Assembly: GCA_017307165.1 (NCBI GenBank) | Contig: JAFKGK010000013.1 | Coordinates: 14,520-78,519 of the forward strand | DNA length: 64,000 nucleotides | Source: Candidatus Melainabacteria bacterium | GTDB taxonomy: Bacteria; Cyanobacteriota; Vampirovibrionia; Obscuribacterales; Obscuribacteraceae | Direction: 5' to 3' | In this document: positions 2 through 59,200 of the stretch, one piece after another | Position numbering within the stretch: position 1 is the first letter of the stretch | Layout: each line of letters starts with the position of its first letter | Position numbers and translations under genes: made by a program | The notes under the pieces: model-generated | The model's input: the letters and a program-made list of their open reading frames with translations, nothing else | Databases searched by the model: none | Told to the model about the DNA's origin: nothing

Positions 2-1048
2 CTCAAGAGTCAATTGGCCGATATGGAGCAACAGACGCTCCAGCCAAATTTTTGGAACGATCAAAAAGAATCGCAAGCCCTGACGCAAAAGATGAGCCGT
101 ATAAAGGAGCTCATCGAGCGGCGCGAAGGTTGGTCCACTCGCATGCGCGACATCCGCGACTACGGCGAGTACGCCAACGATGCCGAGGGGACACCCGATG
201 CCGACGAAGCAGAAAAGCAGATGAAGGCACTGATCGAGGATCTGGACCGCGAACTCACCAAATTTGAATTGACTCGTCTTTTTGATGGCGAGTACGACGA
301 TTCCACGGCCATAGTGACGATCAATGCCGGGGCTGGTGGTACCGATGCCCAGGACTGGACCGAGATGATGCTGCGCATGTACTCGCGCTGGTGCGAAAAG
401 CGTGGCTTCAAGATCGAATTATTGGATCAGTCTCCTGGCGAAGAAGCAGGCCTCAAGAGTGCGACCTTTAGGGTCGAAGGCCCCTTTGCCTATGGCTATC
501 TTTCTTGCGAAAAAGGCGTGCACCGCTTGGTGCGCAAGAGCCCCTTCAAGCAAGGCAATGATTCGCGCCAGACGAGTTTTGCAGCTTTGGATGTCTCGCC
601 GATCATGGACGATCTCCAATCGCTGGTCGAGATCAAAGATGATGATATCGAAATCGACACTATGAGATCCGGTGGAGCAGGCGGCCAAAACGTCAACAAA
701 GTTGAGTCAGCTGTGCGAATCGTTCACAAACCAACGGGCATCGCAGTCAAATGCCAGCAAGAAAGAAGTCAGCTACAAAACAAGGCTCTAGCCATGGACC
801 TTTTGCGCTCTCGCCTCCTCGCTCTTAAGCAGGCTGAAAGAGAAGAAGAATTGGCGCGCCTCAAGGGAGATACCGTGCAGGCAACTTTTGGCAATGCCAT
901 CAGGTCATATGTGCTCGACGACAGGCTGGTCAAGGACAATCGGACCAAGCATGAAACGCCTCGAGTCGAGGCTGTGCTCGATGGCGATCTCGATGATTTT
1001 GTGGAGTCATATTTGCGCTTTAAAGCCGTTCAAAAGCAGCAGACTTGA
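2..1048 (+). CDS. prfB: Peptide chain release factor 2, 5'-truncated at window edge
   Basis: The reading frame is open from the first base of the window. The translation aligns to RF2 from about residue 30 onward and carries the GGQ loop ([20 protein letters not shown]) and an RF2-type domain. The true start and the programmed +1 frameshift site would lie upstream of the window. Confidence 0.9.
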
Positions 1049-1771
1049 AAACTAAACAAAACCTTAAGGCCTACTAATGTCAAGCGCTCGCAAGCCGGAA
1101 TATCTGGCCCATTGGGCGTTTCCGGGCTTTTGGTCCGCAAGCTGCGCTACCCGTTGCGAGACGCATTAACGAAACAAAATCATGGCTTTCTTTGAACTTA
1201 GCGCAACTACCGGGCAAAACCAGACAATTTGACTACCCCAAAATTGCTTTTGAACATAGGCTTGTTTCACCTCATCGACAGCTTGAGTTTTTGTCAGCCT
1301 GTGGCGTTTTACAAATTATTGACAACTCCCCAAAAACCGGTTCAGTCATGCCCTTAGTCTTTTCTTTAGGTTCGCGCAGCAACCCTTATAAGGACTGCGC
1401 AAAAATGTTTGGCCCCATCCACACCTTTTGATACGTTGAATATATTCATTCGCATTCCTCACTCACTTCGGAAAACCCAAGCAAAACCTCCAAAACCCTC
1501 TCAGCGCTATCCCCACCAGACAAGGCATCCCCACCCACTGCGGTTCCGGGTCCACACGGCTTATAAAAGACCATGGGATAAGCGCGCTAATCATTAGTTT
1601 GATCGAGAGAGTTAAAAGAGAAATGCAAGGCAATCCTTAGTAGGTGTGGTTTTTTCTGCCGCACTTCCTCAGATGTTCTCGTCGCGTACGCTTGCCGTCG
1701 ATCGATCGAGAGCATTAGTTGAAGTCGTCGTTGTCGATGAATCGACTTAACCTTCAAAGAAGGAGAAATCT

Positions 1772-3970
1772 ATGTCGGAAAACACTCAAAACCTCGAGGA
1801 GCTGCTGGGACTTAAGCCGCTCGTCGAGGAATCGATCACGTTTCCGGAGTTCTTGAAGTCCCTCAAGGACCATCCGGATCGAGTGGATACGGCGGCGGCG
1901 CGCCTCGTGCGAGCTGTGGAAGAGAAGGGCATCGTCTCCCCCGAGGAGGCAGGCCCCGATCGCCGTGCCTACATTCAGCTGTTGAAGGAACTGCGCATTC
2001 CCGCGTACAAGGCCTTCGACCACGTTCGCGGAGCTCAGCGATTTGCCCATCGTCTGATGACTCACTACAAGTCGGCGGCCAAGAACGGTTACCAGATGCG
2101 GCAGGCCCTCGTGCTGCTCTCTGGCCCCGGCGCCGGCAAGACCATGCTCGGCGATGCCCTGTCGCAGATCCTCGAAGGCGAGGACGTCTGGGCTGTCGAA
2201 GGCTGCCCCATCGGCGAAAACCCCATCAACCTCCTGACCCTGCTCACCGCCGAACAGCGCCTCAAGCTGTCCACGGCTCTGGGCATGCGCACGGAGAAGG
2301 GCGGCGTCTTTGTCGACAAGCTCGAAGAGCTGATGCTGACCGCTCAGGAGCCGTGCGAGCACTGCTTCAAGAAGGTCATGGGCGTCGAGAAGGGCGAAGG
2401 CGGCGCCGACGCGGCACATCCCAACCTGTCGACGATGAAGGTGCAGCGCATCCGCCTGTCCTCGCGTACCAACGGTCTGTCGGTCTGGAGTCCTTCCAAG
2501 GACGGCTCCGGCTGCGACCTCCATGGCGCGCTCGTGCAGGCCAACCGTGGCGTCGTCCGTCTGCTGGAGGCCTTCTCGGCCAACGGCGTCAAGGAAGGCG
2601 AAGTCTCCGAGCTGTCGCTCCTGCTCGAGGCCACCGACAGCCGTCGCGTGCCTTCGGGTACGGGCTCCGGCTGCAGCCAGTCCAACGGCTGGACGCATCT
2701 GGACCAGAACATCGTCATCGAGTCCAACCCGGGCGCCTGGAAGGGCTTCCTGGATGCCCAGCCGGACCGCGCTGCCTACCTGCGCCGCACGCGCGTGCTG
2801 TACATGCCGTACAACACCGTCGTCTCCGAAGAAGCGGAAGCTTATAAGGATGCGCTTCACAAGTTCAAGGCGCGTCCCGAGTACGACCCGCTGGCCCTGC
2901 GGCTCATGGCGATCCTCGCCGTGGCCAGCCGCATGATCGCCGACTCGTCCAAGACGGCCGGCGTCGATCTGGGCACCCGCATCCGCCTCTACGACGGCGA
3001 GCAGATCGTGCTGCCCAAGACGGTCTCGGCCGTCAAGGACGCACCGAGCCCGTACAACAACTACGGCGGCGCTGCCTCCATCGGCGGTGCCTCCAACGCC
3101 AAGAGCGAAGAGAAGAAATCGGCCACGGTCGAGGACATCTGGAAGCTCGCTGGCGAAGACGAGGCCAAGGTCGGTCTCAACATGGGCTTCATGCTCGCCG
3201 CGCTCTCTCGCATCAACGAGGTGGCGCTGAGCACGCCCAAGAAGGTCGCTCCTGCTCTGGCCGTCCTCGGCTGGCTGCAGACCATCGTCCAGATGGCGAA
3301 GGAAGTGCCCGACATCTCGAAAGAGGAACGGGAAGCCTACGAGCGCAGCCTCAAGTTCCTCAAGCCCCTGCAGACGCGTACGCAGGCCGGCTCCGACGGA
3401 GAATCGCTGATGGAAGCGGAATATCGTCGGCTGTTGCGTCAACAGTTTCTTTCCGTCTTTGCTCCTGACTACGACTCGCGGGCCAACAACCTCAACGAGA
3501 AGTACTGGGAGCACGCCATGGCTTCGGCCCAGGGCAAGGAGGTGTTCGACCCCGAGACCAAGCGCAAGCTGGCCGTGGACGTTCCTTTCATGTCCAAGAT
3601 CGAAGTCGCGATGGGCAAGACCGGCGACGAGGCCACTCGTTTCCGCTCGAGCCTGGTCGGCGAAAAGGCGATCCTGATCCAGGCACAGCTCAAGAAGTCC
3701 CAGGCGACTGGCGACGACTCGACTGGCCCCTTGGTCTTCGACTGGAAGCTCCATCCGGAGATCAAGAAGGCGATCAGCAAGATCCTCGACGAGGAGATCG
3801 CGGCCAAGGTGTCCAAGCTGCTCACCACCGAATTCGGCCTGACCGAAGAGGAGGAGAGCCTGCGCAAGGACTCCATGGACCGCCTCAAGGCGTTGGGGTA
3901 CTCCGAGGCCACGTTGGAAGTGGCGCTCAACTACTTCAAGGAAAACGAGCTCTGGAAGGTCAGCGAATAA
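1772..3970 (+). CDS. PrkA-family serine protein kinase paralog 1 (divergent; AAA-like N-domain with Walker A GPGAGKT)
   Basis: A 732-aa protein with an RBS (aaggag) 6 nt upstream of the ATG. It has the PrkA/YeaG architecture: an N-terminal P-loop (LLSGPGAGKTMLGD) and a weaker C-terminal kinase-like region (QANRGVVRLLEAF versus canonical RANQGIMEFVEMF). It is more divergent than the downstream paralog. Confidence 0.75.
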   Translation: MSENTQNLEELLGLKPLVEESITFPEFLKSLKDHPDRVDTAAARLVRAVEEKGIVSPEEAGPDRRAYIQLLKELRIPAYKAFDHVRGAQRFAHRLMTHYKSAAKNGYQMRQALVLLSGPGAGKTMLGDALSQILEGEDVWAVEGCPIGENPINLLTLLTAEQRLKLSTALGMRTEKGGVFVDKLEELMLTAQEPCEHCFKKVMGVEKGEGGADAAHPNLSTMKVQRIRLSSRTNGLSVWSPSKDGSGCDLHGALVQANRGVVRLLEAFSANGVKEGEVSELSLLLEATDSRRVPSGTGSGCSQSNGWTHLDQNIVIESNPGAWKGFLDAQPDRAAYLRRTRVLYMPYNTVVSEEAEAYKDALHKFKARPEYDPLALRLMAILAVASRMIADSSKTAGVDLGTRIRLYDGEQIVLPKTVSAVKDAPSPYNNYGGAASIGGASNAKSEEKKSATVEDIWKLAGEDEAKVGLNMGFMLAALSRINEVALSTPKKVAPALAVLGWLQTIVQMAKEVPDISKEEREAYERSLKFLKPLQTRTQAGSDGESLMEAEYRRLLRQQFLSVFAPDYDSRANNLNEKYWEHAMASAQGKEVFDPETKRKLAVDVPFMSKIEVAMGKTGDEATRFRSSLVGEKAILIQAQLKKSQATGDDSTGPLVFDWKLHPEIKKAISKILDEEIAAKVSKLLTTEFGLTEEEESLRKDSMDRLKALGYSEATLEVALNYFKENELWKVSE

Positions 3971-4045
3971 CCCTGGTGCGGCGCCTCGTCGCACCCCATC
4001 TCGCTACCCTCTGTTCTTCAAACATCTGAACGAAAGGTGAATCTC

Positions 4046-6259
4046 ATGAACACGAACATCAATTCCATCCTGGTTCCGGACTCCAAGAAGCTGTGGCTCC
4101 CCGAAGAGCCCTTCTCCGGTTCCTTCCGCGACTTCCTTCCCCACGCCATGGAGAACCCGTTCTCCGTCGCGTCCGCCAAGGCCCAGCTGTGGCGCCTGAT
4201 CATGCGCCAGGGCATCGACGAGGAGCGCACCGCGCGCCTCCAGGCCAAGTTCGGCACCTACATCCCCGCCTACAACGCCTTCAAGGAGTTCTACGGCGTG
4301 GAGCGTCAGATCCACATCGTCGTGGCTGACTACCTCGGCGCTGCCGTCAACGGCGGTGAAGCCGACAACCAGGTCCTCGTCATGATCGGGCCCAAGGGCT
4401 CGGGCAAGTCGCAGGGCGTCAAGAAGATGAAGACGATCCTCAAGTCGTCCGAACCCCTGCCGTTCCTGGCGGGCAGCCCGATGCGCGGCAACCCGCTCAA
4501 CCTGCTCTACATGATCCCGGTCGTGGCCAAGGCCAAGGCGATCGCCAACAAGACCTCGCTGGCCAAGGCCCGCGCGGAAATCCTGGCGTCGATCGGCCTG
4601 GACGGCAAGGAAGGCGGCGTGCAGCTCAACTTCGCCAACAACGAAGTGCAGCGCGTCTTCCGTCAGGCCGGCGTGGACAAGGCCAACTTCGAAGGCCTGT
4701 GCCAGATCGAAGACGAAGAGCTGCTGGTGTCCGCGATCGTGTTCGGCATGAACCTGCCGCGCTCGACCCGCAACAACATCGGCCGCCCCGACCCCTTCGT
4801 CAAGGCGCACGCGCTGGGCAAGTTCGGCTTCGAGCAGCACGAGCTGGGCAACTACCCGATCGACTCGTTCTTCTTCGAGGACGACCAGGAAGGCTCCGTC
4901 GGCATCTCGAGCGTGAAGGAAGTTCAGCCCCTGAACTTCGACATGCGCGTGATGATCGGTGAGGAAGACATCGCCAAGCTGGGCATGGTCGACCGCGACG
5001 ATCCGCGCTCGGTCCGCCTGAACGGCGCCTACAACCTCGCCAACCGCGGCATCCTGGAGTTCGTCGAGGGCTTCAAGAACCCGAAGGAAGCGCACCGCTC
5101 GGTGCTGGAAGCCACGCAGGACAAGTCGGTTCCGGCTCCGGACCCGATGCGCATGAACCTGCACTTCGACGGCGTGATCATCTATCACTCCAACTTCCCC
5201 GAGTTCCGCGAGTTCGGCAGCGAGCCCAAGAACGAGCCGTACCTGGACCGTATGGTCAAGGTCAACTGGCCGTACCCGCTGGAAGCCTCGGCGCAGCGCC
5301 GCGTCGTGGTCAAGCTGCTCGACCGCACCGACTTCGCCAAGCCCAAGGACGAGGGCGGCGTGCACTTCGAGCCGATCGTGCCGGACTTCCTGGCGCGGTT
5401 CGCGGTGCTGACCCGTCTGTCCGACTCCCAGAAGGTGGCCGACCCGATGATGAAGCTCGAGGCCTATGACGGCAACGAGGGTCGTCTGCGTGGCCTGGGC
5501 ATCAAGGTCGACGTCCGCGCCCTCATGATCGAGGCCGGCGCCGACGAAGGCATGGACGGCGTTTCGCCCCGTTTCATCGACAAGATCCTCACCGGTCTGG
5601 CCTCGCAGGCCAAGTCGGCGGGTCGTACGGCGGTGACTCTGCGTGAGGTGCGTGAGCGCCTCTTCGAAGAGATCGGGCTGATCGGCGACAAGAAGACCCG
5701 TGAGAAGTACGAGACCTTCGTGGTCAAGCACCTCGACACGTGGCAGCGCAAGGTCCGCGCGCGCATCCTGCGTGCGGCGCACGTCGAGGGCTTCAAGACC
5801 CAGTGCCAGGAGCAGTTCCGCAAGTACCTGGACAACGTGCAGGCCTTCAACTCCAACAAGCCGGCCTCGGTGCAGTACGGCACCCGTCGCGGTCCTGACG
5901 AGAACTTCATGCGTCAGATCGAGGCGGATCCGGAGCTGAACATCACGTCGGCCCAGGCCGACAAGTTCCGCAGCGAGGTCATCGCGGTGATGTCCGGCTA
6001 CATGCAGGAGCACAAGACCCTGGATGTGCCGTACACCGCGTACGAGCCGCTGGCGCGCGCCATCGAGCGCTTCGTCTGCGCCATGGTCGCCTCGGCGACC
6101 CGCATCCTCACCTTCAGCAACGCCGTGTCCGACGAAGAGAAGCGCAAGCTGAACTCCGTCAAGCGTCGCCTGATCGAGGATCACGGCTACGACGAGTACA
6201 CCGCCGACGAGCTGCTGCGCGAGGCGGAAGAGACCAAGGACTTCCTGAAGGAGGTCTGA
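4046..6259 (+). CDS. prkA: PrkA/YeaG-family serine protein kinase paralog 2 (canonical)
   Basis: The ATG at 4046 is preceded by gaaagg (the track begins at a GTG at 4037). It has a Walker A (MIGPKGSGKS). LANRGILEFVEGFKNPKEAH..ATQD and FDGVIIYHSNFPEF match the conserved PrkA/YeaG blocks. Confidence 0.8.
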   Translation: MNTNINSILVPDSKKLWLPEEPFSGSFRDFLPHAMENPFSVASAKAQLWRLIMRQGIDEERTARLQAKFGTYIPAYNAFKEFYGVERQIHIVVADYLGAAVNGGEADNQVLVMIGPKGSGKSQGVKKMKTILKSSEPLPFLAGSPMRGNPLNLLYMIPVVAKAKAIANKTSLAKARAEILASIGLDGKEGGVQLNFANNEVQRVFRQAGVDKANFEGLCQIEDEELLVSAIVFGMNLPRSTRNNIGRPDPFVKAHALGKFGFEQHELGNYPIDSFFFEDDQEGSVGISSVKEVQPLNFDMRVMIGEEDIAKLGMVDRDDPRSVRLNGAYNLANRGILEFVEGFKNPKEAHRSVLEATQDKSVPAPDPMRMNLHFDGVIIYHSNFPEFREFGSEPKNEPYLDRMVKVNWPYPLEASAQRRVVVKLLDRTDFAKPKDEGGVHFEPIVPDFLARFAVLTRLSDSQKVADPMMKLEAYDGNEGRLRGLGIKVDVRALMIEAGADEGMDGVSPRFIDKILTGLASQAKSAGRTAVTLREVRERLFEEIGLIGDKKTREKYETFVVKHLDTWQRKVRARILRAAHVEGFKTQCQEQFRKYLDNVQAFNSNKPASVQYGTRRGPDENFMRQIEADPELNITSAQADKFRSEVIAVMSGYMQEHKTLDVPYTAYEPLARAIERFVCAMVASATRILTFSNAVSDEEKRKLNSVKRRLIEDHGYDEYTADELLREAEETKDFLKEV

Positions 6260-6496
6260 TCCTGACGGCCTGACGGCCTGAGTGGACCAGCCTTCCTAAC
6301 CGACGAGGGGGACATCGGGCAACCGGTGTCTCCTTCATTTTGGCGGTAAGGGAGCCCAGAGGTTTCGTAGCTCGAGTCTATAAGGAGGCGAGAGGTGTGT
6401 CACCAGCAATGGTGGCATGCCTTTTCGCCTTTCTTTTTTTGTAGCGAAATTTCTGAACAAGCTTCCCCAGTCTAAAACCTCGAACAGGAGATCCAT

Positions 6497-7822
6497 ATGT
6501 CTAACGAACTCGATAAAGAGGTCGTTGCGACCGGTGGTGATACCGCTCAGAACACCGGCTCCGACCAGAACCAGGATCTGGGTGCCACCAACAGTGCACC
6601 GACCAGTCCGACCAACAAGATCGGACTCTTCAACGCGATGAACTCCCCGTTTCCGCTGGCGAACACCACGCGCGCCATGCTGAACGGGGGCATCATCGTC
6701 ACTCCGCCCAATCCCTCGGGCGGCGACCGTACGCGCGAAGACCGCGATCGCCACAAGGATCGCATCCGCGACCAGATCAAGCCCCAGCTGCCCGGCATCA
6801 TCGGCACCACGCCGATCTTTGGTGACGGCGGCAAGGTCAAGGTCCCGGTCAAGGGCGGCTACGAGCCCAAGTGGCGCTATGGCCGTGACCCCAAGGGCGG
6901 TGGCGGCGGCGGTGGCGGCGAAGCTGGCGACAACGCCGGCGAGCTCATCTACGTCGAGATCTCGATGGAAGAGCTGATCGAGATGCTCTTTGCCGACATG
7001 GAATTGCCGGACATGCTCAAGAAGCAGCTGGCGACGACCAAGGTCAAGACGTACAAGTACCGCGGCGTGCAGCCCAACGGTCCCAAGCCGCGTCTGCGCA
7101 AGAACGACACGGCCAAGGCCCGCATCCGGCGCGCGATCGGCATGAAGAATGCCCAGCCGGAAGCCTACCAGCACGTCACCACCCACATCCCGACGATCCA
7201 GGATGTGCCCTTCCACAAGCAGGACGAGCGCTACCACCGGGTGGACGAGACCTTCGACGAGGACAGCAAGTGCGTTGTCTTCTTTGTGCTCGACCGCTCC
7301 GGCTCCATGGGCGGTGACCCGCTCATGATCGCCAAGGCGTACTTCCTGCTCAACCTGATGTTCCTCCGTACCAAGTACAAGGACGTCACGGTCGTCATGA
7401 TCGCGCACGACGGCCAGGCCTATCGCATCCGCGATGAGAAGAACTTCTACGAGATCGAGGTGGACGGCGGCACGCTGTTCATCCCGGCCTACCAGATGAC
7501 CTGGGACATCGCCCAGGCCGAGTTCCCGCCCAGCGTCTGGAACCGGTACATGTTCCATGCCACCGACGGTGTCATGTTCGAACGCCCGGAAGAAGTCGCC
7601 GGCTGGTTCACCAAGCTGGTCAAGGGCAACTTCAACTTCCTCGGCTACCTGGAAATCGATCCGGGTCTCTGGGGCGGTGGCGGTGGCTGGCAAACCGGCG
7701 GCAAGGCACTCTTGACCCTCCCTGAGGAGATCGCAAAGCACGTGGGCATGGCCAAGGCGAAAACCTTGAAGGATGTCCCCGACGCGTTCAAGGCGATCCT
7801 CACGAAGGACAAGAAGGCCTAG
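6497..7822 (+). CDS. YeaH/YhbH-family protein (DUF444, vWA-like), conserved PrkA partner
   Basis: A 441-aa protein with an RBS (aggaga) before the ATG. It has the DUF444 core with a MIDAS-like VLDRSGSMGG. It also has Gly-rich low-complexity inserts (GGGGGGGGEAG; GGGGGWQTGG). It sits in the expected position between prkA and spoVR. Confidence 0.8.
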   Translation: MSNELDKEVVATGGDTAQNTGSDQNQDLGATNSAPTSPTNKIGLFNAMNSPFPLANTTRAMLNGGIIVTPPNPSGGDRTREDRDRHKDRIRDQIKPQLPGIIGTTPIFGDGGKVKVPVKGGYEPKWRYGRDPKGGGGGGGGEAGDNAGELIYVEISMEELIEMLFADMELPDMLKKQLATTKVKTYKYRGVQPNGPKPRLRKNDTAKARIRRAIGMKNAQPEAYQHVTTHIPTIQDVPFHKQDERYHRVDETFDEDSKCVVFFVLDRSGSMGGDPLMIAKAYFLLNLMFLRTKYKDVTVVMIAHDGQAYRIRDEKNFYEIEVDGGTLFIPAYQMTWDIAQAEFPPSVWNRYMFHATDGVMFERPEEVAGWFTKLVKGNFNFLGYLEIDPGLWGGGGGWQTGGKALLTLPEEIAKHVGMAKAKTLKDVPDAFKAILTKDKKA

Positions 7823-7854
7823 GCCTTTTTCCTAACCTTTAAAAGGAGCCTGAT

Positions 7855-9699
7855 ATGACTGACAAAACTCGTTTCCAGGAGCAGCCGCTCGCCACCAACA
7901 TCATGATGTGGGATGGTCGGCTGCAGAAGGCCGCCAAGCGCTTCAAGCTCGCTCCCTATCCGACCCGCTACGAAATGGTCACTGACGACCAGATGGTTCG
8001 CCTCATCCCTTACACGATGTTGCCGAGCCGCTATCGTCACTGGTCTTTCGGCAAGCGCTACGAGGAGCAGGCCAAAAACTTCGGCGGTCACATCTTCGAA
8101 GCTGTGATCAATTCCAACCCCAGCTTCTGCTACCTCGGCGTCACCAATCTGATGCCGATGCAGGTGCTGGTGATGGGCCACGCGACCTATGGTCACGTGG
8201 ACTTCTTCGCCAACAACCACCTCTTCCGTGAATCCGGCGCCGACTACATCGTCGAGAAGCTGGCCCAGCACGGCGAGTTCGTCAAGAACCTGATCGAGGA
8301 CCCGACCTACGGCGTCGGCAAGGTCGAATACATCCTCGACGCGGCCCACGCGCTCGACGACCACATCGGCTGGCTGCCGACCAACAAGGATCGCGTCAAG
8401 GAACCCGAGCTGCGCAAGCAGCTCGAAGCCGAGCTGATCAACCTGACCCAAAAGCGCAACGCCTCCATCTCGGAGTTCGAGCGCACCGGGCTGGACGAGC
8501 AGATCAAGGAGCTCAACGACCAGCTCCGCCGCGATCCGATCGCTCCCACCGATGATGTCCTCGGCTACATCATCAAGAACAACCCGCGCCTCACCGAAAA
8601 GGAGCGCGGCCTGCTCGCCATCGTGCGTGACGAAGGACGCTACCTGCAGCCGCAGGCGCGCACCAAGATCATGAACGAAGGCTGGGCGTCGTTCTGGGAA
8701 AAGTATCTCCTGCTGCAGCCGGAAGTCGGCATCGCCGGCACCAACTGGGCGCTGGAGATGTCCTCGTACTGGTCGATGCATGATCGCCAGGCGTCGGACT
8801 TCTACTTCAACCCCTACACCCTCGGTCTGTGCATCTTCGAGCACATCTTTGAGACGTACTGCACCGACGAAACCGAAGTCGAGGTGGAGCGTCCGACCTA
8901 CACCACGCGTCCGGCGACCGAGGAAGACGAGCGCGACGAATACCTGATCAAGTCGCTCAACGGCGAAGTGATCGAGTGGACCGGCGAGCTCGAGCGCGTC
9001 AAGACCATGCAGCGCGACATCAGCAAGATGCTCGCGGTGCGTGAAAACTTCGAGGACAAGACCTTCATCCGCCAGTTCCTCACCGAGGAATTGATCGAGA
9101 AGATCAACATGAAGGCCCTGAAGTGGCTGACGCGCACCATCCGCATGGTCTCCGACCTGCTGATCACGCGCGGCTTCAATCCGCAGCTGGCGGCTCCGGA
9201 TCCGCTGCCCTACTCGCTCGAAGAGCTGATGGGCATCATCGAAAAGTGGAACGAACTGGCCGAGACCGGACAGCAGATGCAGCAGATGGGGATGCCGCCT
9301 TTCCCGGTGCATCCGCAGACGCTCAAGTCGCTGGCCACGATCATCCAGATCGTCGCTGCTTTCGACCAGGACAAGAAGAAGTTCCGCAAGATGATGGTCA
9401 TGCGCACTGGCTACCACTCGGTGCCGGTGATCAAGATCGTCGACGGCGGTCCGCTCTCCTTGAACGACAACACCGGCACGCTGACCCTGGCGCACCACTT
9501 CGATCCCGATTATGGCTTCCTTCTGCAGTCGGAATGCCGCGACACGGTCAAGTTTGCCGTGCGCATCTGGGGTCGTCCGGTGCGGCTCATCACCATGGAG
9601 CAGCAGCAGGACAAGTTTGGTCGGCCCATCGGTCAGCCGCGTCCTTACGAGTACGTGAGCGACGAGGACGGTGAAGTGCGGGAGCGTTGGCTGGCCTGA
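7855..9699 (+). CDS. SpoVR/YcgB-family protein
   Basis: A 614-aa protein with an RBS (aaaggag). The SpoVR N-terminal block is present (RYRHWSFGKRYEEQ..GHIFEAVINSNP..LVMGHATYGHVDFFANN). It completes the PrkA-YeaH-SpoVR triad. Confidence 0.85.
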   Translation: MTDKTRFQEQPLATNIMMWDGRLQKAAKRFKLAPYPTRYEMVTDDQMVRLIPYTMLPSRYRHWSFGKRYEEQAKNFGGHIFEAVINSNPSFCYLGVTNLMPMQVLVMGHATYGHVDFFANNHLFRESGADYIVEKLAQHGEFVKNLIEDPTYGVGKVEYILDAAHALDDHIGWLPTNKDRVKEPELRKQLEAELINLTQKRNASISEFERTGLDEQIKELNDQLRRDPIAPTDDVLGYIIKNNPRLTEKERGLLAIVRDEGRYLQPQARTKIMNEGWASFWEKYLLLQPEVGIAGTNWALEMSSYWSMHDRQASDFYFNPYTLGLCIFEHIFETYCTDETEVEVERPTYTTRPATEEDERDEYLIKSLNGEVIEWTGELERVKTMQRDISKMLAVRENFEDKTFIRQFLTEELIEKINMKALKWLTRTIRMVSDLLITRGFNPQLAAPDPLPYSLEELMGIIEKWNELAETGQQMQQMGMPPFPVHPQTLKSLATIIQIVAAFDQDKKKFRKMMVMRTGYHSVPVIKIVDGGPLSLNDNTGTLTLAHHFDPDYGFLLQSECRDTVKFAVRIWGRPVRLITMEQQQDKFGRPIGQPRPYEYVSDEDGEVRERWLA

Positions 9700-9814
9700 T
9701 CGCAAGATCACGGCTAAGCACGCTCGATCAGATTAGGCGAGGCTTCTGCAGCAAAAGCAGGAGCCTCGTTTCCTTGTTTCACGATCGTTCATCTCTAAAG
9801 TAAAGGAGCAATCT

Positions 9815-10576
9815 ATGCATACTCACGCCAAAAACGGCGTTGGCGTCAGCGTGATCAACGCTGCGACCAACGCGAGCGCCCTCGGTGTGCTCCTCGACAA
9901 CGGCCTGCATCTCGTGCGCGTGCCTTATGGCCCGCTCAAGGTGCGGATCACCGCCCAGCACGACGTCGAAGTCGAGCTGCACTTCGAGGACCAACTCCGC
10001 CTGACCAAGCGCCTCGCCGCCGGCACGCACACGCTCGAGCGTGGCGACGACGGCATGCCGATCATGTTCGCGGCCCCCGAGTCGAGCTTCGTCTGCGTCC
10101 CCACGGACGACGACGATGCCGGCAACGCCGATCCTCGCGAATCGGTGCGGATGCCCAACTACATCGAGCAGGCGCTCAAGACCATCCGCGGCGAATCGCC
10201 GGCGCCCGTCGCCAAGACTGCGCCCGCGACTGCCGCTGCCGACGACGACGAACTGTCGTTCGGCGCCGTGACCAAGTCTGCCTCCCCGGTCGACGACAGC
10301 GCCGCTACGCTGTCCGCCGCCGACTCCGCCGATACGACGGGCGAGACCGATGCGCCGGTGCGTCAGCACCAGCACTCGGGCTTCCTCGGCGTGGTCGTGC
10401 GCTACGTCGAGCAAGCGCCGGTACCGGGTGTGGTGCCTCCGTCCTACGACGAGGCCGTGGTCACCTTCCAGCTGAACCCGCACGAGAAGCACCTCTCGGC
10501 GGTCGCAGCCAACTTCCACCGCATGGTGCCGCCGGAGCCCACCACCAAAAAGTGGTGCAGCTGCTGCCAGCACTAA
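9815..10576 (+). CDS. Hypothetical protein with acidic low-complexity middle and C-terminal WCSCCQH tail
   Basis: A 253-aa ORF with an RBS (aaaggag) on the same strand 116 bp after spoVR. Its codon usage matches its neighbours. I recognise no family. The C-terminus is KKWCSCCQH. Confidence 0.5.
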   Translation: MHTHAKNGVGVSVINAATNASALGVLLDNGLHLVRVPYGPLKVRITAQHDVEVELHFEDQLRLTKRLAAGTHTLERGDDGMPIMFAAPESSFVCVPTDDDDAGNADPRESVRMPNYIEQALKTIRGESPAPVAKTAPATAAADDDELSFGAVTKSASPVDDSAATLSAADSADTTGETDAPVRQHQHSGFLGVVVRYVEQAPVPGVVPPSYDEAVVTFQLNPHEKHLSAVAANFHRMVPPEPTTKKWCSCCQH

Positions 10577-10591
10577 GACTGGAGTAACGAT

Positions 10592-11131
10592 ATGCTGTGT
10601 CCCGACTGCAATCAGCTGTCCTTGAGCATCCTCAAGGGCACATGCGCGGAATGCGGCGGCGATACTGTCTCCGACGATCACATTTACTGCGATCAATGCA
10701 GTTTGGACCAGGACGCGTGCCAGGTCTGCGGAGATGAACTGGGCATCCATGCTGCTCAGGCCGCCGTCGCCACTCCCGGCGTCTTCATGGTGCGCAAGTT
10801 TATGAGCGACAACGGCTCGACGATCAAACTCAAGGTGGGCGACGAGCTGCACCTCGAGCTCGATGTCTCCAACGGTTACACATACCATTGGGTCAACGAG
10901 CGCAAGAACGATCGTGCCGTCGTCGACTTTCAGGCTGCGCAGCCGTTCGTTGCCGCCCAGGGCAACAATCAAAACAACTGGGGCAAGGGTACGCAGACCC
11001 TGGTCTTCAAGGCCACGGGAGTCGGCACGACCACTCTCGAGCTCAAAGAAGACGTCAACCGTTCCAACTTCTGGGGCGGTGGCAGCGGACCTTCCGGCGT
11101 CACCTGGTCGGCAACGATCCAGGTGAAGTAA
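10592..11131 (+). CDS. Zinc-ribbon (4x CxxC) fused to a chagasin-like (inhibitor I42-like) beta-sandwich domain
   Basis: It starts 16 bp after the previous stop. The N-terminus has CPDC..CAEC..CDQC..CQVC. The C-terminal half resembles chagasin-family motifs (KVGDELHLELDVSNGYTYHW; FKATGVGTTTLEL; VTWSATIQVK). The family call rests on motif resemblance only. Confidence 0.5.
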   Translation: MLCPDCNQLSLSILKGTCAECGGDTVSDDHIYCDQCSLDQDACQVCGDELGIHAAQAAVATPGVFMVRKFMSDNGSTIKLKVGDELHLELDVSNGYTYHWVNERKNDRAVVDFQAAQPFVAAQGNNQNNWGKGTQTLVFKATGVGTTTLELKEDVNRSNFWGGGSGPSGVTWSATIQVK

Positions 11132-11229
11132 CCGGATCAGAGAGTCGCTGGAAGGAAGCAAAGCTCGCAAGAGACAAGCTTCCTTCCAGCCGACTCTTCT
11201 TTTTAACCGCATCTATTCATTCATATAGT

Positions 11230-58058: not shown

Positions 58059-58862
58059 ATGGCAGAGCTAGCTCGTAAAATACACCCATTGGTACCAGTG
58101 GCAAAGGCAGCCAGATTATTGCGCCTCGACGAAAACCTCCTGATATCGCGCATTTCGCGTGGAGTTATAGCAGGAGAGTGTCGGCGCATCGATAGCACCT
58201 CCAGTGATACTACCAAACCTGGCTCTCGCAAAAAGCGTAGCACCACCACTGGTTACCAAGAGCAGTGGTTTATCCACGCCGACGAGTTTGACCGCTTGCT
58301 AGACGACAAGTTGGCAAACCTGGAGGAGCGAGTCACCACTTCGGGGATGGATGATTTTTTCACCACCAATTTTGACGCCACACCCACCTATGATTTTGCA
58401 CCGCCTAGACAATACCCAGAGATGAGTTTTGTCCCCGGGCACGACGAGTCGGTCGACACTCACCCGCACCGGATTGCGACCGACAGAGCACGCGATCACG
58501 TACATATCAGCGAGTCAGACCTGAGGCCCTCCGACAGCTCGGACGACCACCAGGCCATCGATGCCGAGATGGACGCGCAGTGCGCAACCAAGTCCCAGAC
58601 GACATCCGCTCAGGAGTTTGTTGCCACCACTTTCAATACCGAGCTCTCCAAGACGATCGGTACCGCCATCGCAGCCGAGATCATAGGCATGCTGAGCCAG
58701 GAGGTCGAGCGCAACCAGACGCTGCACGACCGCATCGACTCACTCGAGCGCGAGATCGTCGCCCTCAAGACCGAGCTGTATTACCAGGTCGATAGCAAGC
58801 CTACTGTGGTGTCCCGAGTAGGCGGCTATTTTGCGCGTATGTTTGGCTTAAAGGTGAAGTAG
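58059..58862 (+). CDS. Hypothetical acidic protein (267 aa)
   Basis: It is an ORF of coding-like composition. I recognise no family. Its last about 10 nt overlap the 3' end of rnpB on the other strand. Confidence 0.4.
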   Translation: MAELARKIHPLVPVAKAARLLRLDENLLISRISRGVIAGECRRIDSTSSDTTKPGSRKKRSTTTGYQEQWFIHADEFDRLLDDKLANLEERVTTSGMDDFFTTNFDATPTYDFAPPRQYPEMSFVPGHDESVDTHPHRIATDRARDHVHISESDLRPSDSSDDHQAIDAEMDAQCATKSQTTSAQEFVATTFNTELSKTIGTAIAAEIIGMLSQEVERNQTLHDRIDSLEREIVALKTELYYQVDSKPTVVSRVGGYFARMFGLKVK

Positions 58863-59200
58863 CGTATAAGCCGGGTTCTGTATTTGACCGTCATCTATCT
58901 GGGAGAGCGATCTCTCGCCCCCTCTAGCGGCATCGGCAGAACGAGACGACGGGCAGCCGCTTACTCGATCTATACCTTCGCCTTGCACCTTTAGCGGGGT
59001 TTACCTAGCCAGAGCCTCTCGACTCTGCTGGTGCGCTCTTACCGCACCGTTGCACCCTTGCCTGCTTGCGCAGGCGGTCATCATTTCTGTGGCACTATCC
59101 TCACGCTCACGCGCACTGGGCATTACCCAGCAACCAGCCCTGCGGTGCCCGGACTTTCCTCATTGGCAAGCCAACGCGACAGTCTGCGCTACTTCAGCCC
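58850..59200 (-). ncRNA. rnpB: RNase P RNA (bacterial type A)
   Basis: Three universally conserved motifs are present on the minus strand: GGAAAGUCCGGGC (complement of 59148-59160), GGGUGCAACGGUGCGGUAAGAGCGCACC, and ACAGAACCCGGCUUAU (complement of 58866-58881). The 5' GAAGUAGCG and 3' CGCUACUUC ends pair as helix P1. A TATAAT -10 box sits about 7 nt upstream of the 5' end (complement of 59203-59208). Confidence 0.85.

Follow-up and report, generated by a model that had tools for sequence, protein, structure and literature searches.

The stretch analysed here, called the window, is 64,000 nucleotides of DNA from Candidatus Melainabacteria bacterium (contig JAFKGK010000013.1, positions 14,520 to 78,519). 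It carries the PrkA/YeaG-YeaH-SpoVR stress/starvation module of Candidatus Obscuribacterales (Melainabacteria), in which the AAA+ ATPase is present as two ancient paralogs. Genes were taken from a six-frame listing of open reading frames (ORFs) and from translation of the window, and their families were assigned with Pfam and NCBIfam. The module comprises four ORFs on the + strand. PrkA paralog 1 (1772-3970; 732 aa) matches AAA_PrkA with 102 bits and PrkA_C with 64 bits, and PrkA paralog 2 (4037/4046-6259; 740 or 737 aa, depending on the start) matches the same two domains with 209 and 135 bits. They are followed by a YeaH/YhbH homologue (DUF444; 6497-7822; 441 aa; 201 bits) and, after a gap of 32 nt, by a SpoVR/YcgB homologue (7855-9699; 614 aa; 279 bits). 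The Pfam cut-off for AAA_PrkA (PF08298) and PrkA_C (PF06798) is 25 bits, and both paralogs lie above the gathering score for the N-terminal AAA_PrkA and the C-terminal PrkA domains. An earlier reading of the sequence (the original prediction) had described a complete triad of PrkA, DUF444, and SpoVR preceded by a second full-length PrkA gene in tandem on the same strand, and the domain matches bear out both statements. The NCBIfam model for the YeaG equivalog (NF011999) has a cut-off of 576 bits, which is reached neither by paralog 1 (77 bits) nor by paralog 2 (197 bits). Therefore, neither paralog is an equivalog of E. coli YeaG.

The canonical triad, known from E. coli, Bacillus, and others as prkA/yeaG - yhbH/yeaH - spoVR/ycgB, has the same three families in the same order and on the same strand. 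The families are adjacent on one strand in the window, and this arrangement is kept in relatives. The locus differs from the canonical triad in having two PrkA genes, whose products exceed the canonical form (~640 aa) by about 90 aa each, and two extra conserved genes after spoVR. The junction with yeaH also differs. In a canonical proteobacterial locus (L022), a single PrkA gene of 638 aa overlaps yeaH, whereas a structured spacer of 237 nt lies between paralog 2 and yeaH in the window. The translated YeaH homologue shows a DxSGS motif (VLDRSGSM) of the von Willebrand factor A (VWA) type and two glycine runs. These runs had been taken for inserts. The second one does look lineage-specific, but the first falls at a site where canonical YeaH has a Gly-rich loop too.

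Is paralog 1 still an ATPase? The original prediction pictured it as a regulatory pseudo-kinase with a changed P-loop and a weakly conserved kinase-like C-domain. Residues were compared in one alignment of 93 canonical PrkA, 46 paralog 1, and 33 paralog 2 sequences. In paralog 1, the Walker A motif is present as K123/T124, with the Lys 100% conserved in the clade and the Ser/Thr kept; the corresponding lysine of GKS is 100% conserved in the paralog 2 clade as well. The Walker B Glu (E266) is nearly invariant, and it is strictly invariant in the 18 closest sequences. The sensor-1 Asn (N319), which follows strand 4, is 100% conserved. Two arginines are conserved at 96% (R339) and 87% (R387, at a helix end), and the invariant residues Y578 and R625 of the C-domain are kept. 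In other words, the losses by which a pseudo-ATPase is recognised (Walker A Lys, Walker B Glu, sensor-1 Asn, conserved Arg) were not found in paralog 1. The P-loop strings quoted for the two paralogs, GPGAGKT and GPKGSGKS, are correct. However, the change does not amount to degeneration, as K123 and T124 are present and only the first Gly is replaced by Ser, in the subclade of the window alone. The P-loop reads SGPGAGKT in the window and GGPGSGKS or GPPGSAKS in relatives, and the solved PrkA structure 9xip has GSAKS at this place. Paralog 2 matches this structure (PDB 9xip, annotated as a "serine protein kinase") with E = 1e-44.

Structure prediction places these residues in an AAA+ fold. An AlphaFold2 model of paralog 1 built from an alignment of 132 sequences has a mean predicted local distance difference test score (pLDDT) of 91.5 and a predicted template modelling score of 0.90; it replaced an earlier model from an 18-sequence family alignment (pLDDT 64). 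Strand 261-265 is immediately followed by E266, and strand 313-318 by N319, which is where AAA+ proteins have Walker B and sensor 1. The segment that had been read as a kinase-like C-domain, QANRGVVRLLEAF, covers residues 256-268 and is the Walker B region, inside AAA_PrkA (Pfam 22-390). Since it forms the Walker B strand 261-265 followed by E266 in the model, it is not a kinase-like C-domain. A Foldseek search with the paralog 1 model returned AAA+ matches only, including Lon, FtsH, NorQ, CbbQ, and RuvBL, and no protein kinase was among these matches. The pseudo-kinase idea also disagrees with what is known of the family, which is one of AAA+ ATPases. In B. subtilis PrkA, Walker A is the only demonstrated ATP site, its lysine K108 is needed for ATP binding and function, and kinase activity was not detected (PMC9512850). 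The PrkA of B. anthracis has been described as an AAA+ ATPase whose protease activity is negligible (PMC13001217). Judged by their sequences, both proteins of the window belong, at full length, to the PrkA-family AAA+ ATPases, and their nucleotide sites are intact.

The two paralogs are only distantly similar. Their identity is ~28% in local BLAST segments and 22% over 618 columns of a profile-profile alignment (probability 100%). Paralog 2 is 100% identical to a 737-aa NCBI protein from a metagenome-assembled genome (MAG) of Candidatus Obscuribacterales. The order paralog 1-paralog 2-DUF444-SpoVR is kept in every related locus with enough sequence. It extends to deep relatives whose paralog 2 is 42-45% identical to that of the window, and one deep relative keeps the gene order though its upstream neighbour is no longer prfB. 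The pair had been judged not to be a recent duplicate, and its retention in the same order in all sufficiently long related loci agrees with that. Both paralogs are under selection across Candidatus Obscuribacterales. They do not evolve at the same pace: in each of the 11 loci with the full five-gene set, paralog 1 shows the lowest conservation among the five genes. For example, paralog 1 and paralog 2 show identities of 72 and 89% in one locus, 50 and 62% in another, and 42 and 55% in a third. A scan with the paralog 1 profile over one genome per GTDB species gave 11 loci, ten of which are labelled Obscuribacterales, Obscuribacteraceae, or Melainabacteria.

Each paralog forms a clade of its own. 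For paralog 1, a word-indexed search turned up no more than 19 clusters. When 1.84 billion representatives were searched exhaustively with HMMER and the family profile, a clade of 24 full-length representatives stood out, each matching in a single stretch with 1185 to 269 bits. The next matches below were ordinary PrkA proteins at 188 bits or less, aligned in three stretches. All members of the clade whose source is named come from Obscuribacterales or Obscuribacter, and no specific relative of paralog 1 outside the Obscuribacterales lineage was found among the 1.84 billion representatives. The paralog 2 clade consists of 32 clusters at 100-40% identity, after which canonical PrkA follows at ~28%. 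Neighbour-joining recovered each paralog clade in 50 of 50 bootstraps. Profile-profile scores were 367 between the two paralogs, 627 between paralog 1 and canonical PrkA, and 842 between paralog 2 and canonical PrkA. Thus, the copies moved away from a canonical-type ancestor along different paths, and paralog 2 has stayed nearer to canonical PrkA than paralog 1. One protein (P0046) considered as a special nearest canonical relative turned out to be merely a slowly evolving PrkA of the Oligoflexia/Bdellovibrionota type. Two sequences bear labels from other taxa. The eleventh locus of the profile scan (L013; JAJPJO010000360.1) holds a full cluster of the Obscuribacterales type and is labelled "Proteobacteria bacterium", and a partial protein of the paralog 2 type (P0206) is labelled Gemmataceae. 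Both are probably mis-binned or mislabelled MAG contigs.

What distinguishes the two copies is a set of losses, which fall on different features in each. Paralog 1 lacks ~27 residues that paralog 2 and canonical PrkA have in the profile-profile alignment, in the stretch from the second strand region to the helix that precedes Walker B. A Tyr-Gly pair has been proposed as pore loop 1 in B. anthracis PrkA (PMC13001217), and the segment missing from paralog 1 is the one that holds it. Paralog 1 also has Arg in place of the Glu three positions before the Walker B Glu (a Glu in 86% of canonical PrkA), Ser in place of the Lys after Walker B, Glu/Ala in place of the His/Glu flanking sensor 1, and Gly in place of the Arg in the EGMxGxSxR motif. 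A Cys/His cluster, GCP ... CxHC (C145, C195, H197, and C198), has been retained in paralog 1 and is invariant in the family alignment. It was counted in 39 of 47 paralog 1 sequences, most of the other 8 being misses of the Walker A search pattern that anchored the count. A form of this cluster, GCP ... CPxC, occurs in 45 of 93 canonical PrkA sequences, and none of the 34 paralog 2 sequences has the CxxC. Also lost from paralog 2 are one Glu and one Tyr that paralog 1 shares with canonical PrkA. The Cys/His cluster is ancestral and probably binds zinc. The two copies have thus split ancestral features between them by complementary losses from a canonical-type ancestor. The separable features would be the nucleotide site together with the Cys/His cluster in paralog 1, and the pore-loop segment together with EGMxGxSxR in paralog 2.

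The spacing of the genes bears on how they are transcribed. The start of paralog 2 is most likely ATG 4046, which lies behind a Shine-Dalgarno sequence (GAAAGG, 4032-4037) and fits the 737-aa NCBI protein. Therefore, the spacer between the two paralogs is 75 nt and not the 66 nt given originally. The stem-loop that had been placed in this spacer at 3975-3995 is real. This GC-rich hairpin on the + strand, close behind the stop codon of paralog 1, has a 9-bp stem (3975-3983/3987-3995). The spacer fold (3968-4048) has a minimum free energy (MFE) of -21.9 kcal/mol (z = -2.95; 1 of 200 shuffles as good). The hairpin is followed by CCCATCTCGC with no U-tract, and it is therefore not a canonical terminator. 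Of 17 loci, about 7 have a hairpin of different sequence at the corresponding place, and loci with spacers of 0-32 nt have none. A hairpin with a T-run after paralog 1 was found by a strict rule in none of 15 loci, and a consensus scan found no promoter-like site in the spacer. Across loci, the spacers between the paralogs measure 0-90 nt, and each gene has its own Shine-Dalgarno sequence. The two paralogs had been assumed to share one operon. With short spacers and neither a terminator nor a promoter-like site between them, they do look co-transcribed.

The spacer between paralog 2 and yeaH (6260-6496, + strand, 237 nt) is of a different kind. It contains several hairpins, one of them GCAA-capped, and its fold has an MFE of -105.6 kcal/mol (z = -6.0; none of 200 shuffles as good). 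A terminator scan placed a terminator-like hairpin followed by a T-run at 6390-6425 (+ strand), and such a hairpin with a T-run is present after paralog 2 in 8 of 15 loci, the window included. The terminator-like hairpin after paralog 2 suggests that paralog 1 and paralog 2 form a bicistron. The predicted layout is thus a bicistron of the two paralogs, then yeaH-spoVR, and then a terminator-like hairpin at 9735-9771 (+ strand), 3' of spoVR, which a consensus scan identified with 15 pairs and a weak T-tail. The structured spacer could serve mRNA stability or attenuation. Across the related loci examined, all spacers between paralog 2 and yeaH consist of stacked stable hairpins that differ in sequence, several of them capped by GCAA or GAAA, and they are too divergent to be aligned for covariation. 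The largest such fold is that of locus L001 (-249 kcal/mol over 479 nt).

Upstream of paralog 1 lies a non-coding leader (1049-1771, + strand; 723 bp, 47% GC). It was described originally as unusually long and free of ORFs, and indeed no ORF of at least 80 aa is present in it, the longest being 79 aa. It contains the Shine-Dalgarno sequence of paralog 1 (AAGGAG, 1760-1765, + strand), which was read from the sequence and lies in a region kept in close relatives. In relatives, the region upstream of paralog 1 is 580-1500 bp long and mostly unconserved. Short blocks are conserved in collinear order within it: TACCCCAAAA, cTTGACAAC, TTAgCCTTTTCTTTAG, TTTGATACGTTG, and GGAACCC. In the window, blocks of conserved DNA on the + strand are located at 1234-1243 (TACCCCAAAA), 1359-1369 (CTTTTCTTTAG), and 1429-1438 (TGATACGTTG). 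With at most one mismatch, the decamer TACCCCAAAA recurs ahead of paralog 1 in 13 of the 19 related loci examined, and its distance to the CTTTTCTTTAG block is 125-128 nt in seven loci. The block TTTGATACGTTG..ATAT is kept in the window and in loci L017, L018, L019, L001, and L006. A consensus scan identified a promoter-like site, TCCACA-17-TATATT (1418-1446, + strand), that overlaps the best-conserved block. From these elements, the leader is probably a promoter/operator region followed by a 5' untranslated region of ~320 nt.

Several other interpretations of the leader were considered and dropped. A perfect 12-bp palindrome, TGAATATATTCA (1437-1448, + strand), adjoins the conserved TGATACGTTG block and recalls the half-site arrangement of an ARG box, with a different spacing. 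It is present only in the three closest loci, with one-mismatch copies in the two closest relatives, and an ARG-box-like conserved operator was rejected on account of this limited range. Sigma-54 and sigma-70 readings of the conserved blocks were made by eye and had no consistent -10 or -12 partner. Structured RNA in the leader, which the original prediction had raised, was not found: the leader has no Rfam match (the best match over 900-10000 had E = 0.17, and the two weak matches there lie outside the leader), and RNAalifold predicted 0 consensus pairs from an 11-locus alignment. On these two null results, a riboswitch or other structured RNA was rejected. A small conserved leader ORF was rejected as well, the tblastx matches being short and scattered over all frames.

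The arrangement of four genes is not new, because a four-gene cluster of this kind was reported for haloarchaea in 2011. All haloarchaea have a signature cluster of two adjacent PrkA-related genes with DUF444 and SpoVR (Anderson et al. 2011, PMC3102087). The novelty attached earlier to a "four-component variant" was thus overstated. By its published description, the haloarchaeal cluster has the same four-gene architecture, kept lineage-wide, in another domain of life. Did the two pairs arise from one duplication? No halophile-like acidic sequences were found in the paralog 1 profile search by a composition filter. Plasmid and chromid records with PrkA have one PrkA place each (75 of 75), and no haloarchaeal PrkA was among the 60 matches listed of these 75 records. 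That nothing lies between the paralog 1 clade and ordinary PrkA, together with the lack of halophile-like sequences, argues for an independent origin of the Obscuribacterales pair, as far as sequence searches can tell.

How might two PrkA proteins work in one module? Hetero-oligomeric rings of paralogous AAA+ subunits are known from FtsH (type A/B and FtsHi), RuvBL1/2, and Pex1/Pex6. Like the pair described here, these are old paralogs with complementary motif retention that are encoded or expressed together, though the comparison is purely a mechanistic analogy. The structural matches of the paralog 1 model include chains of FtsHi and RuvBL. The MoxR-type pairs of an AAA+ and a VWA protein (NorQ-NorD, CbbQ-CbbO) are another of the systems closest to the module. 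PrkA differs from their ATPases by a large extra C-terminal domain and an N-terminal extension, Foldseek places PrkA nearest to Lon, and MoxR systems contain nothing that corresponds to SpoVR.

The picture favoured here, with a probability of roughly 0.55, is one of two subfunctionalised ancient paralogs that are encoded as a bicistron and form a mixed ring acting with YeaH and SpoVR. The bicistron would be transcribed from a promoter in the long upstream region. The two PrkA proteins would assemble into a single mixed AAA+ ring, in which paralog 2 would provide the canonical substrate-engaging elements and paralog 1 would be a specialised ATP-binding subunit with a regulatory or scaffolding function. 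Taken by itself, the sharing of one ring by the two paralogs is a tentative proposal with somewhat less than even chances. A role of paralog 1 as a partner subunit, as originally suggested, is plausible in view of adjacency, co-occurrence, and complementary motif loss. The ring would act together with the VWA-like YeaH and with SpoVR, as a single PrkA does elsewhere. This part of the model is proposed because yeaG, yeaH, and ycgB show tight cofitness in six other bacteria (bioRxiv 10.1101/072470). Finally, the terminator or attenuator 3' of paralog 2 would set a separate dosage for yeaH-spoVR.

Some observations weigh against this picture. By the strict rule, a hairpin with a T-run is missing after paralog 2 in 7 of 15 loci. 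Neighbour-joining unites the two paralogs in 0 of 50 bootstraps, with distances above 2 that are saturated, and the pair may stem from a duplication within the lineage or from separate acquisition. Moreover, two separate homo-oligomers would account for the complementary motif loss and the tight linkage just as well. The two proteins would then be independent homo-oligomeric PrkA ATPases with their own clients or inputs, sharing the operon only through the YeaH/SpoVR pathway. Each paralog has a complete set of nucleotide-site residues and could, by that measure, act alone, as a canonical PrkA from a single gene does elsewhere (PMC9512850), and the paralogs are as distant from each other as from any canonical PrkA. 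However, their strict co-occurrence and adjacency across the order, with spacers down to 0-20 nt, argue against independence, and interdependent subunits would show just such a complementary loss of the pore-loop segment on one side and the Cys cluster on the other. Two separate homo-oligomers are therefore regarded as unlikely. The fourth opposing point concerns catalysis, as the Glu-to-Arg change three positions before the Walker B Glu could abolish hydrolysis by paralog 1 and would then favour a dead subunit.

Such a subunit would be a catalytically dead pseudo-ATPase and a pure regulator that binds paralog 2, YeaH, or SpoVR, which carries the pseudo-kinase of the original prediction over to the AAA+ domain. 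Besides the loss of this Glu, found in 86% of canonical PrkA, it is consistent with paralog 1 being the fastest-evolving gene, with the replacement of the Lys after Walker B and of the His/Glu around sensor 1, and with the first P-loop Gly having become Ser in the subclade of the window. However, dead subunits usually lose some of the very residues that paralog 1 keeps, namely the Walker A Lys (100%), the sensor-1 Asn (100%), R339 (96%), R387 (87%), and the Walker B Glu, which is invariant in the 18 closest sequences. More than 40 paralog 1 sequences are also full-length and undisrupted, and a dead subunit is considered quite improbable. Finally, the paralogs could be separate transcription units used under different conditions, with the hairpin at 3975-3995 acting as a terminator or processing site. 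The stability of this hairpin is above chance (z = -2.95), and about 7 of 17 loci have hairpins of other sequence in that position. Yet the hairpin has no U-tract, a hairpin with a T-run follows paralog 1 in 0 of 15 loci, the spacer has no promoter-like site, and the spacers of 0-32 nt in several relatives are too short for a terminator plus a promoter. These observations leave separate transcription very little room.

The biochemical role of the module is unsettled, as kinase, protease, and plain ATPase have all been claimed. The two-copy form is a natural variant that points to which PrkA features can be separated, and it gives the two-PrkA cluster of haloarchaea, itself unstudied, a counterpart among bacteria. 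With two proteins to co-express, the question of PrkA oligomers also becomes directly testable. The work rests on uncultured organisms, and the mixed ring is a proposal drawn from sequence. In the literature searched, no paper linking Obscuribacter or Melainabacteria with PrkA was found. The locus further flags two candidate partners of the module, in addition to the strongly structured intercistronic element.

These candidates are two genes located after spoVR on the + strand. Gene X (9815-10576; 253 aa) has no family match in Pfam or NCBIfam. Its homologues lie directly after spoVR in 13 non-redundant loci of the 15 matched, including the deep loci L020 and L021; the duplicates are L001/L015 and L004/L005. 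Gene Y (10592-11131; 179 aa) encodes a double zinc ribbon at the N-terminus and a chagasin-like domain (peptidase inhibitor I42) at the C-terminus. The Inhibitor_I42 match has 23.5 bits in the window and falls short of the cut-off (27.2), which the L001 homologue passes with 28.9 bits. Gene Y follows gene X in nine non-redundant loci (10 matches, as L001 and L015 are the same contig). Because X and Y are conserved after spoVR, the conserved array may have six genes, with gene X as a possible fifth and gene Y as a possible sixth component of the module. A more far-reaching reading, which is doubtful at best, is a machine of six parts: an obligate hetero-oligomeric PrkA ring, YeaH, SpoVR, and two lineage-specific partners, gene X and gene Y, the latter a putative peptidase inhibitor. 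In such a machine, a zinc-binding paralog 1 without the pore-loop segment would gate paralog 2. If this is true, an inhibitor beside the module would be independent support for the disputed role of PrkA systems in proteolysis. On the opposite strand, an ORF of 477 aa (9779-11212, - strand) overlaps genes X and Y. No family matched it, and it probably arises as a shadow ORF from GC-rich coding sequence.

On the other side of the module, the upstream neighbour is prfB, the gene of release factor 2 (14-1048, + strand; Pfam PCRF and RF-1; NCBIfam prfB 430 bits). It is a conserved neighbour outside the module and precedes paralog 1 in almost every related locus, but not in L021. Its ORF opens at the window edge with TTG and the model match begins at position 25, and the start of prfB probably lies upstream of the window. 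A search of the whole window found no tRNA genes. The window also contains a bacterial class A RNase P RNA (58851-59196, - strand; 256 bits).

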